This document shows, in pieces, positions 45,801 through 48,800 of a DNA stretch of 64,000 nt (position 1 is the first letter of the stretch; each line of letters opens with the position of its first letter). The position numbers are program-made. This DNA comes from an uncultured Candidatus Saccharibacteria bacterium. GTDB lineage: Bacteria > Patescibacteriota > Dojkabacteria > SC72. The stretch is taken from NCBI GenBank assembly GCA_964514595.1, contig CAZEQZ010000001.1, positions 182,511 through 246,510 on the forward strand, given 5' to 3'.

Positions 45801-48800
45801 ATCTGCAAGGGTCTTTCCCTCCTCTGTCCCTCTTTTTGCAAAACTTTGGTACTATAATCCTGTGGAAGGATTAGGGTCTGACCCCGGCCTGTCCCCCATT
45901 TCGCAAAACTTTGGTACTATAATCCTGTGGAAGGATTGGGGTCTGACCCTGGTCCGACCCCGGATGTGATAGAATTCGATATGTCTTTGTACAACGATTT
46001 GAAGAAAAAGAACGGATATATAACAGCGCTTGCGCCAATGGAAGGGGTCACGGATTCTGTTTTTAGGCAGGTTCTTTGTGATATTGGTAAGCCCGATCTG
46101 TTTTTCACTGAGTTTCTCAGTGTGGAGGGTTTCTGTTCAAAGGGGAAAGAAAGAGTTTCTCATAGATTAGTTTTTTCAAAAAAAGAAAAACCTGTCATAG
46201 TTCAGTTATGGGGAAATGAACCAGAGTATTATGCCGAAACTATTAAATATGTCAAAAAACTTAAACCAGATGGTATAGATATTAATATGGGGTGTTCTGT
46301 AAGGGATGTTCTTTCTGGTGGTAGAGGTTCAGCTTTAATTTTACAGAAAGACTTAGCCAAGGAAATAATATCTGTTGTGAAAAAAGAAGCGAAAGGAATT
46401 CCTGTGTCTGTTAAGACGAGGTTGGGATATGATTCTGTTGATATAGATGGGTGGATAGGATTCCTTTTAGAGCAGGGGCTGGATAGTATAACGATACATG
46501 GTAGATTATCTAAAGAAGGATATACCACTCCTTCAAGGTGGATGGGAATATCTAATTGTGTTAAGTTAAGGGATGAGGTGTCTCCTAATACAATGATCAT
46601 TGGAAATGGGGATATTAAGAATTTGGAACAAGGCAAAGAATATGTGGAAAGATATGGTGTGGATGGTTTTATGATTGGAAGAGCTATTTTAAATAATCCG
46701 TGGATATTTAGTGGAAAAGAGGATATCTCAAAGGAGGAGAGAATAGAAACAGTAATTAAACATTTTGAATTGTTTGAGAAGGTATGGCGAGGAAGCAAAC
46801 CTTTTAATAGCCAGAAGAAGTATATAAAAGCATATGTTTCTAATTTTGATGGGGCCAATGAATTAAGGAAAGAGTTAATGAAATGTGGGGATGTTGAGGA
46901 AGTAAGGAAATTACTGCTTAATTAGTTTGTTTCTCTTATGGATTAAATACTAAGTGGTGTATATAATTGAAAATTATGAAAAATACAAAATCGATACAGG
47001 CGGTTACAGATTTTAGACTAAATAGGAGATTTTTTAAACCACATGATGAATATAATATAAAGTATTTAATTAATACCATTTATTCAACATTTGGTATTGA
47101 AAGTGGAATAAATGTCCCGACAGATTGTTTAAAAGATTCAAACAAATATGACAATGTTATGCTTATTCTGTTAGATGGATTATCCTATTCTCTTTATGAA
47201 AAACACCTAAAAAAGTTACCAAAAGAGAAAAGATTGTTATTGGAGAGAAATCTATTATTTTCAAAATTAACAACAATTTTTCCTGCAACTACTACTTCAG
47301 TAATACCATTTTTAATGACCGGGTATATGCCTGAAGAAAGCGGAATATATGAATGGTGGCAGTATGAACATAATAGTGATGAAATAATATGTCCTTTCCT
47401 TTCTCAGTATCAAAAAGATAAAGAGTCTTTGGATATGAAAGAGTTGGGGGTTGATCCAATTAAGATATATAAGGAAAGCAGAATTTACAAAAAATTAATG
47501 AAGGAAAATATTAAGGTTACATCATTTGCCAGAGAGTATGAAACACCATTTAATAATATCGCCAATGATGAAATAAATGTTTTAACATTTAATTATATTA
47601 CCGAATATTTTAAACATTTTATGAAGATGAAAATCGAGGGAAGGAATTTCTTTTATATGTATGAACCAAACATAGACTATTATCAGCATAAATTTGGTGT
47701 TAATTCCAAGGAATGTAGTGATTGTGTTTCTGAAATATTGAATGAATTGTATACACTACTTAAATATGTAGATGAGAAGCTAAACGGAAATATTCGCATC
47801 TTTATTACAGCCGATCATGGTCTGACAGATGTGTCATATAAAAAAATATTGTTTCTTGATAAAGGAGTAGATAACATCGAAAAGTATTTAAAGAAGAATA
47901 GAAAAGGAAATCCAATAAGATGTGGAGGGTCTCCGAGGGCATGTGTTTTACATATTAAGGAAGATAAGGTTAACGAATTTATTAATATTGCGAGAAATGT
48001 AGTAGCAGATTATGGTGAAGTATTCCAAATTGATGAGATTTTCGATATGGGTCTTTTTGACAAAGATTTAGCTTCTGAGGATTTTATGAGAAATATGGGG
48101 AATCTAATATTTCTAGCATACCCTAATAGAGGTATTTGGTTCGAAGAAGATTTTAGTAGCTATAAAGGTTTTCATGGAGGGTTATCAGAGGATGAGTTAC
48201 ATATTCCATTGTTATTGTATTAATCTATTTTGAGAATGTAGCTACCATAGCGAATCTGCCTTGGTCTGGTATTCCTGCTCTAAAATCTCTCACATGTGAG
48301 AAATATCTTTCATCCTTGAATGTGTCTATATCATGGATCTTAATGTTCGATTTTTGGATACCCTCTTCCTCTAATTGCTTAATTGTATATCCTACGTTAT
48401 CAATGCTGTATTGTTCCTCTCCTATTTGTTTAATGTACTCACCCCAGTCAGATGTTATCTTGTTGAATATATTTTTGTCATATATCAAAGAATCTTTCTG
48501 TATTCCAGGTCCTATGATAACTTGTATATCATTGATGTTGCTTTTTAACTTTCTAAATTCTTTTAAAACCTTCTTAACAATTCCTCTATCTGTATTACCC
48601 CAACTAGAATGAATTAGGGAGAGTATTCCCAATTTATTATCAAATATTATAATTGGAAGACAGTCTGCAACTACTAGAAATAGGTTCACATTTGGAGAAG
48701 TCGTAATTAAAGCATCGCATGGAAGCGCATTTGCTTTTTTTGTTAATCCCTTTCCTTTATCTTTGAGTGATACAAAATTAATATCAGTCCCCATTTGTAC

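Follow-up and report, generated by a model that had tools for sequence, protein, structure and literature searches.

A Species-Specific Tandem Duplication of a 65-bp Putative Operator Unit Upstream of dus in an Uncultured Dojkabacteria Genome

Introduction

In the pho box of E. coli, direct repeats (CTGTCAT) replace the -35 element of the promoter. In the leaderless genes of Actinobacteria and Deinococcus, the -10 element is located directly upstream of the start codon, and this arrangement is the signal for the "leaderless" genome class of GeneMarkS-2. Among the operators of the GntR family (FadR subfamily), the C. glutamicum LldR site reads TGGTCTGACCA; for FadR, the consensus is TGGTN3ACCA (PMC2602784). 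In E. coli, the LldR box reads AAnTGGTCnGACCAnTT, and all binding regions contain two sets of it (PMC10272880). Here, we describe an array of 65-bp units that is located upstream of dus, the gene for tRNA-dihydrouridine synthase, in a 64,000-nucleotide stretch (the window) of contig CAZEQZ010000001.1, assembly GCA_964514595.1, from an uncultured Candidatus Saccharibacteria bacterium placed in the Dojkabacteria. The array shares features with each of these systems and differs from each of them.

The window was compared with related DNA comprising approximately 70 Dojkabacteria dus loci, about 740 kb in total (739 kb in the motif scan). The loci are referred to by L numbers, and L001 duplicates the window. 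We conclude that an older 65-bp cis-regulatory module has undergone a recent tandem duplication specific to this species; both the duplication and its origin are well supported. The best reading of the feature, which we hold with slightly better than even confidence, is that of a copy-number-variable operator array, made of the duplicated module, in the common control region of dus and the divergent p132-clp operon.

Structure and Authenticity of the Array

Tandem Repeats Finder detects a repeat of period 65 at 45824-45949, with 1.9 copies and 93% matches. A repeat search of the window resolves two 65-nt copies (45808-45872 and 45873-45937) that are 86% identical and abut head-to-tail at a period of 65, with no indels and nothing between them. 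A partial third unit follows at 45938-45960. The same search found a 22-nt GC-rich box in three copies, at 45809, 45874, and 45939, with a spacing of 65 nt. The window contains exactly two copies of the 35-nt core GCAAAACTTTGGTACTATAATCCTGTGGAAGGATT, both in the array, and shuffled sequences are expected to contain none. The two full copies and one partial copy described in the first-pass annotation are thus confirmed. The TATAAT hexamer noted in each full copy is present at 45853-45858 and 45918-45923, and the G/C-rich unit boundaries are real and palindromic (GGTCnGACC).

One unit consists of a GC-rich A box (22-24 bp) and a spacer, B (41-42 nt). The array is laid out as A0-B1-A1-B2-A2, followed by 20 nt and then the dus ATG at 45981. 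An A box is composed of two GGTCnGACC palindromes in 11-bp phase, which together form an inverted repeat of 20-24 nt. The distal box A0 (45809-45830, no strand assigned), which reads GGGTCTTTCCC followed by TCCTCTGTCCC, was identified by the repeat search and from the relatives. It is decayed and has lost the GGTCnGACC palindrome; relatives show GGGTCTGACCC at that position. The junction box A1 (45874-45895, no strand assigned) reads GGGTCTGACCC followed by CGGCCTGTCCC, as defined by comparison with A0, A2, and the boxes of L012 and L013. The promoter-proximal box A2 (45938-45961, no strand assigned) reads GGGGTCTGACCC followed by TGGTCCGACCCC and was recognized from a period-11 repeat at 45940-45960 and by motif comparison. 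The pair of GGTCnGACC palindromes in A2, set 11 bp apart, makes up an inverted repeat of 24 nt with a predicted RNA hairpin of about -16 kcal/mol. Relative to ATG 45981, A2 spans about -43 to -20.

The spacers are read on the plus strand. B1 (45831-45872), the spacer of unit 1, was delimited from the sequence and the repeat search. It contains the palindrome TTTTGCAAAA, TGGTACTAT at 45847-45855, the first TATAAT, and an inverted repeat TAATCC-N7-GGATTA. The GTG at 45862 opens a 35-codon open reading frame (ORF). B2 (45896-45937), the spacer of unit 2, is identical to B1 over 35 nt in the repeat search. It contains TGGTACTAT at 45912-45920, the second TATAAT, and a GTG at 45927 that is in frame with dus.

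The first-pass annotation had raised the possibility that the repeat is an assembly artefact of a single copy. This was examined with a 231-base stretch of the p132-dus intergenic region that starts at 45754 and includes the whole array. The stretch is identical in a MEGAHIT contig (ENA ERZ27252300) and in a contig of JGI 3300033176. It is also present, with two single-nucleotide polymorphisms, in a SPAdes contig from a third project (ENA ERZ16299706), which represents a strain with 99.8% identical DNA. In addition, four Logan contigs (k=31), each from a different further run, all end within the exact 35-nt core, at 45867 of the window, as a de Bruijn assembly is expected to do at a true repeat longer than k. 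An artefact is ruled out by the agreement of three spanning assemblies from different pipelines, one of them of a slightly different strain, together with the k=31 breaks. As a practical consequence, contigs of this species are prone to breaking at the array. The contigs of two other lineages (L099, positions 1-58, and L101, positions 1-107; Dus 78% and 75% identical, respectively) begin within or at the A/B region upstream of dus, and these lineages may also carry assembly-breaking repeats.

Origin of the Duplication

L012 and L013, whose Dus proteins are 82% and 80% identical, respectively, are the closest relatives found. Both have a single unit, A-B-A, with A boxes 65 nt apart. Tandem Repeats Finder detected no tandem repeat in L012. 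Since the closest relatives have one unit, the 65-bp duplication is specific to the species of the window. The junction box A1 records how the second unit arose. Its 5' part, GGGTCTGACCC-CGGCC, resembles A2 (GGGTCTGACCC-nGGnC; A2 has TGGTC). Its 3' part, TGTCCCCC, is followed by the T-rich tract TTTCGCAAAAC and GCAAAAC and resembles A0 and its junction with B. A1 is therefore a chimera of A2-like and A0-like halves, which is the joint expected from unequal crossover or slippage between A0 and A2. The features of a tandem duplication are all found here: the copies abut, the ancestral state is one unit between short direct repeats, and the junction is a hybrid. As the chimeric A1 suggests, an ancestral A-B-A would have become A0-B1-A1-B2-A2 through an event between two A boxes 65 bp apart, either unequal recombination or replication slippage.

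The duplication is real yet a fairly ordinary event, at a site where other Dojkabacteria lineages have similar arrays. The units of the window, L012, L013, L086, and L043 align essentially gap-free; the conserved parts are GGTCnGAC…CnGnCC, the T-rich tract, and AAAACT. L043 (Dus 57% identical) has a 65-bp period at 1571-1783 with 3.3 copies and 93% matches, and this array is reproduced in L045 from another sample. In L086, the A boxes are spaced 64 nt apart. L025 carries an independent array of period 109 bp (5681-5883, 1.9 copies, 95% matches) at the same intergenic site. In the arrays of both L043/L045 and L025, each unit opens with a GGTCnGAC-type box. L054 and L099 have a single A box, and other lineages have none, with a minimal intergenic region of 81-87 nt. 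Tandem arrays have formed in this control region on at least three independent occasions, and from these alignments the putative regulatory unit is older than the window species.

The Start Codon and Probable Promoter of dus

The dus gene (45981-46925, plus strand) encodes 314 amino acids from a conserved ATG and matches Pfam PF01207 (E=1.9e-59). Its closest named homologues are tRNA-dihydrouridine synthases of Candidatus Dojkabacteria, a lineage within the candidate phyla radiation (CPR)/Patescibacteria. The longest dus ORF begins inside the repeat at GTG 45927, and public gene calls use this codon (332 amino acids). However, L013 has an in-frame TGA in the stretch that matches GTG 45927 to ATG 45981. 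When the N-termini were aligned, most homologues examined start at or near M-(S/N)-x-Y, which corresponds to ATG 45981. The first-pass annotation had predicted that the longest ORF starts in the repeat and that automated annotation would mis-start the gene, and this was borne out by the public call, the L013 stop, and the homologue N-termini. An N-terminally extended Dus as the conserved form is ruled out by the in-frame stop and the homologue alignment, and the start codon of dus is corrected to ATG 45981 from GTG 45927.

A probable core promoter of dus lies directly upstream of this ATG. The extended -10 element TGATAGAAT (TGnTAGAAT; 45967-45975, plus strand), recognized from conservation and from the pattern in the window, ends 5 nt before ATG 45981. 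In most of the approximately 50 Dojkabacteria loci listed, TGnTA(G/A/T)AAT is found 5-8 nt before the dus ATG or GTG. The same layout is common elsewhere in the window. Eight of the 31 TGnTAnAAT/TGnTATAnT sites lie 3-10 nt before the starts of ORFs of at least 100 codons, against a background of 4.5% (P=5e-5). More than one-third of the 53 long ORFs of the window have a -10-like hexamer 5-10 nt before the first start, and a Shine-Dalgarno-like motif, loosely defined, precedes only seven of the 53. Because the conserved extended -10 is next to the ATG and the same layout is common in the window, dus mRNA is probably leaderless. That the dus promoter is the extended -10 TGATAGAAT, and not the TATAAT of the repeat, is a well-supported but indirect conclusion.

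These features resemble those of leaderless Actinobacteria and Deinococcus genes: TGnTAnAAT occurs 5-8 nt before the start of dus and of many window genes, and Shine-Dalgarno-like motifs are rare. The pattern suggests that leaderless transcription is widespread in this Dojkabacteria genome. A search of the available literature turned up no description of leaderless genes or of promoters for either Dojkabacteria or Patescibacteria. Hexamers of the -10 type (TAnAAT/TATAnT, often with TGn) are seen 5-10 nt before starts at, for example, 8181, 9768, 11062, 34113, 56838, and 60370. Examples of genes with a -10 at the start on the minus strand are those at 21724-22530, 27967-28629, 51651-52169, 55074-55571, and 62514-63431.

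In the minimal intergenic regions of 81-87 nt, a hexamer that reads TTGCAA/TTTCAA or, in the alignment, TGCAAG/TTCAAG is mostly located 16-18 nt upstream of the dus -10; the spacings are 17 in L015, 18 in L021, 17 in L055, 16 in L059, 16 in L073, and 19 in L100. The aligned intergenic regions identify its homologue in the window as CTGCAA (45803-45808, plus strand), a -35-like hexamer that has been left behind immediately before A0, 161 nt from the dus -10. This distance arises because the array lies between the two elements. The flank ATATCTGCAAG of CTGCAA is common to the window, L012, L015, and L054.

The A Boxes as Putative Operators

The divergent neighbor of dus is p132 (45355-45753, minus strand), which encodes a predicted membrane protein of 132 amino acids that matches no Pfam family. 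This gene heads an operon that also includes the gene for a 905-amino-acid Clp/AAA+ ATPase (42636-45353, minus strand). The divergent p132-dus pair is kept in nearly all of the approximately 70 Dojkabacteria loci, which places the array within a control region shared by the p132 operon and dus.

The A-box motif is concentrated in this control region. GGTCNGACC has 28 matches in the 739 kb of Dojkabacteria DNA, or 25 without L001. Of these 25 sites, 18 are located at most 320 nt upstream of dus, and four of the remaining seven represent one conserved coding site within the clp gene. When both strands of the window were searched for GGGTCTGACCC with at most one mismatch, five matches were found where 0.38 were expected, and four of them lie at two palindromic sites of the array. 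The GGTCnGACC motif is absent from the rest of the 64-kb window. The 9-bp GGTCnGACC occurs at 45875, 45940, and 45951 and in eight other lineages; the outer T/A pair is G/C in the window lineage.

The 9-bp core palindrome GGTCnGACC is identical to that of FadR/LldR/PdhR-type operators (PMC2602784, PMC10272880). Like the A boxes, FadR/LldR-type boxes are often paired and located at or just upstream of core promoters. These operators have T...A flanks with AT-rich arms, but the A boxes are flanked by G/C, or by A/T in other lineages, and the two palindromes of an A box abut in 11-bp phase. The A boxes also have a likeness to the Pho box and other OmpR/PhoB-type repeats, in that two 11-bp-phased repeats are located about 10 bp upstream of the -10 of a promoter without a usable -35. 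Unlike in the Pho box, each 11-mer of the A box is itself palindromic, and its sequence is unrelated to CTGTCAT. A single response-regulator gene was seen near the array. It has a Pfam Response_reg match only and appears to consist of the receiver alone.

Protein binding is the most likely role of the A boxes, a putative function that we infer from motif resemblance. The boxes are proposed to be operators for a dimeric DNA-binding protein, possibly a FadR/LldR-like regulator of the GntR family. The array lies between the stranded -35-like hexamer and the probable dus core promoter with its extended -10 TGATAGAAT, and the proximal box A2, at -43 to -20, would take the place of a -35 element. 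If the A boxes are operators, what the duplication alters is the count of operator sites, with a lineage-specific TATAAT added, and the ancestral dus promoter is not itself doubled. Among the three functions offered in the first-pass annotation, the binding-site array is the best fit, with GGTCnGACC conserved specifically upstream of dus and a FadR/LldR-type core in the putative operators.

Several observations weigh against an operator array. A Pfam scan of the 37 window proteins revealed no GntR or other regulator candidate, and a weak tblastn search of approximately 800 kb around the dus loci found no GntR match; a regulator, if there is one, does not appear to be encoded locally. The sole helix-turn-helix (HTH) DNA-binding protein recognized in the window, of the Xre type, is paired with a Gp49-like toxin. 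In place of the T/A bases next to the FadR/LldR core, the A boxes carry G/C or A/T. Depending on the lineage, 5 to 19 nt separate the A box from the -10, which is loose for an activator. In L026, L043, and the proximal box of L025, the second 9-mer is non-palindromic, yet the long inverted repeat is kept. This retention, together with one compensatory change in L026, fits a hairpin at least as well as two operators. Many Dojkabacteria have no A box, so the box is dispensable, and the duplication may be without phenotypic effect.

Alternative Explanations

The first-pass annotation had suggested that the array is a duplicated promoter. In this explanation, each B segment would be an active promoter that works via the extended -10 TGGTACTAT, which overlaps TATAAT, and the duplication would add transcription into dus. 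The GTG located 6 nt after TGGTACTAT means that both segments could give leaderless products: B2 could yield a leaderless mRNA for a Dus that is 18 amino acids longer, and B1 a 35-amino-acid peptide. The arrangement TGGTACTAT-N6-GTG does match the window layout of an extended -10, 5-10 nt, and a start codon. Moreover, the TATAAT is perfect, and the window lineage has gained a better -10 than its relatives. The hexamer is, however, a derived feature. At its position, relatives that keep the unit read CACAAC (L012, L013), CACAAT (L101, Dus 75% identical), or GCAGAA (L043), so the perfect TATAAT is derived in the window lineage, and it arose before the duplication, since B1 and B2 are identical. 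Within the repeat, no hexamer pair was found at the canonical spacing of 16-18 nt. The -35-like TTGCAA is only 11 nt from TATAAT, and TGG-TACTAT fits an extended -10 with four of six hexamer positions. The N-terminal extension that B2 would add is broken by the TGA in L013 and absent from most homologues examined, and a conserved extended -10 already adjoins the dus ATG. The idea of a duplicated promoter thus lacks support from conservation, and tandem active promoters are unlikely. A reading of B as a fossil copy of the dus promoter and 5' coding region is likewise unsupported. The resemblance between B and the dus promoter and start is only at the motif level (TGGTAG..., 6 nt, ATG/GTG), and local alignments in four lineages score no better than shuffles.

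The A boxes could also act as nucleic-acid structures, either RNA hairpins in transcripts crossing the region or DNA cruciforms, serving for example as insulators or terminators against stray transcription into dus or as stabilizing stem-loops, and the array would then be a row of hairpins. In most lineages, the A box nearest the promoter has a folding energy of -10 to -17 kcal/mol, and z-scores reach -5.6; L026 keeps a 9-bp stem via its compensatory change relative to L054, and several distal boxes precede T-rich tracts, as in L086 and L037. A terminator, however, would have no obvious incoming transcript to stop, since in nearly all loci the gene upstream is transcribed divergently, and A2 has no T tract after it. 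The folding is weak in L043 and L012, the stem mismatches have no G-U bias, and the central n/n' positions pair in three of eight cases. RNAalifold pairs only neighboring A boxes with a negligible covariation term (-0.81), and the minimum free energy of the whole region has z-scores of about -2 on both strands, so that a conserved RNA structure of the unit is not supported. With the lack of an Rfam match added, we regard a structural role as distinctly unlikely. The least probable explanation is that the array is a neutral slippage product of duplication-prone short direct repeats, in which the extra unit and the boxes have no function beyond spacing. It would account for the many Dojkabacteria with an intergenic region of 81-87 nt and neither A nor B, for the decay of A0 in this genome, and for copy numbers that differ across lineages. 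It does not readily account for the persistence of GGTCnGACC and the 64-65-bp spacing across lineages (Dus 57-82% identical) while B diverges, nor for the confinement of the motif to the dus locus. The extra copy itself may be a neutral product.

Known Repeat and RNA Families

Searches for other copies of the unit covered the window, the related loci (approximately 740 kb), the GTDB representative genomes, and viral contigs, and found none beyond the dus locus. In the related loci, an approximate search found B-like cores only upstream of dus. GTDB representative genomes gave six matches with unrelated flanks, which were taken as chance, and viral contigs gave no match to the repeat core. The array shares with repetitive extragenic palindromic (REP) sequences, bacterial interspersed mosaic elements (BIMEs), and miniature inverted-repeat transposable elements (MITEs) its GC-rich imperfect palindromes, its intergenic location, and tandem mosaics of varying copy number. 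Whereas a genome holds tens to hundreds of scattered copies of such elements, the array occupies a single locus in the DNA searched and has neither terminal inverted repeats nor target-site duplications. Within the DNA searched, a MITE or other dispersed element is ruled out, and the MITE-like interpretation of the first-pass annotation fails with it. Separately, GCAAAACTTCTGTACTATAAAAT at 6651-6673, inside an ORF, agrees with the B core at 18 of 23 bases, which by a rough estimate is compatible with chance.

The period of 65, in which palindromic repeats of roughly 24 nt take turns with "spacers" of roughly 41 nt, and the degenerate end repeat are reminiscent of an array of clustered regularly interspaced short palindromic repeats (CRISPR). 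Unlike CRISPR spacers, the "spacers" are identical within the array (B1/B2, 35 nt) and homologous across distant lineages; the A boxes are only 73% alike, and the position between the same two genes is fixed. The identity of the spacers and their conservation between lineages rule out a CRISPR mini-array. At the Rfam gathering score, scans of the whole window and of 11 related loci gave no match at the array position; even at E<=10, the region has none save chance miRNA-like matches. ARAGORN detected no tRNA. A known RNA family or tRNA-like element is thus ruled out.

Other Features of the Window

The first approximately 350 residues of the Clp/AAA+ ATPase encoded downstream of p132 have no Pfam match and include a hydrophobic stretch. 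Downstream of dus, an imperfect 22-nt tandem repeat with 2.3 copies is located at 48909-48956. By coordinates mapped from contig L001, it covers the 3' end of a tRNA_edit (YbaK-like) gene and a short region upstream of a Cu-oxidase_4 gene, and it may be another promoter-adjacent duplication. Two more repeats are found in coding regions. A repeat of period 21 at 14438-14576 (6.6 copies, 97% matches) is located in an ORF of 581 amino acids (13354-15099, minus strand) without a Pfam match. At 39144-39190, CCTACTCCCACT is repeated 3.9 times with a period of 12 (and 6) within the ORF 39039-39845 of a type IV pilus-like gene cluster.

A toxin-antitoxin-like pair is encoded at 52246-52882 and consists of a Gp49 (HigB-like) protein, with 109 amino acids in the longest ORF and 105 in the public call, followed by a 98-amino-acid Xre-type HTH protein. 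The region 11062-12426 encodes a tyrosine recombinase of 454 amino acids (Phage_integrase family), with TAAAAT 6 nt before the ATG; it could be Xer-like or part of an integrated element.

Conclusions

The operator array that we favor can be extended into a bolder proposal. The conserved array with its phase of about 65 bp may be an evolvable "rheostat" of dus, and possibly of the membrane protein-Clp operon, that expands and contracts by recombination between its own operators, with the B segments serving in addition as working leaderless promoter-start modules that give the longer Dus from GTG 45927 (18 additional amino acids) and the 35-amino-acid peptide from GTG 45862. We consider this combination very unlikely.

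If the duplication is neutral, the finding is an ordinary one. If the boxes bind a regulator, variation in operator copy number would be a simple route to tune expression in reduced genomes that are poor in transcription factors. The analysis provides a palindromic box specific to this locus, together with a candidate class of regulator, and a first view of promoter architecture in Dojkabacteria. It thereby offers a small but concrete glimpse of how transcription is controlled in an uncultivated CPR lineage, where almost nothing is known about it.

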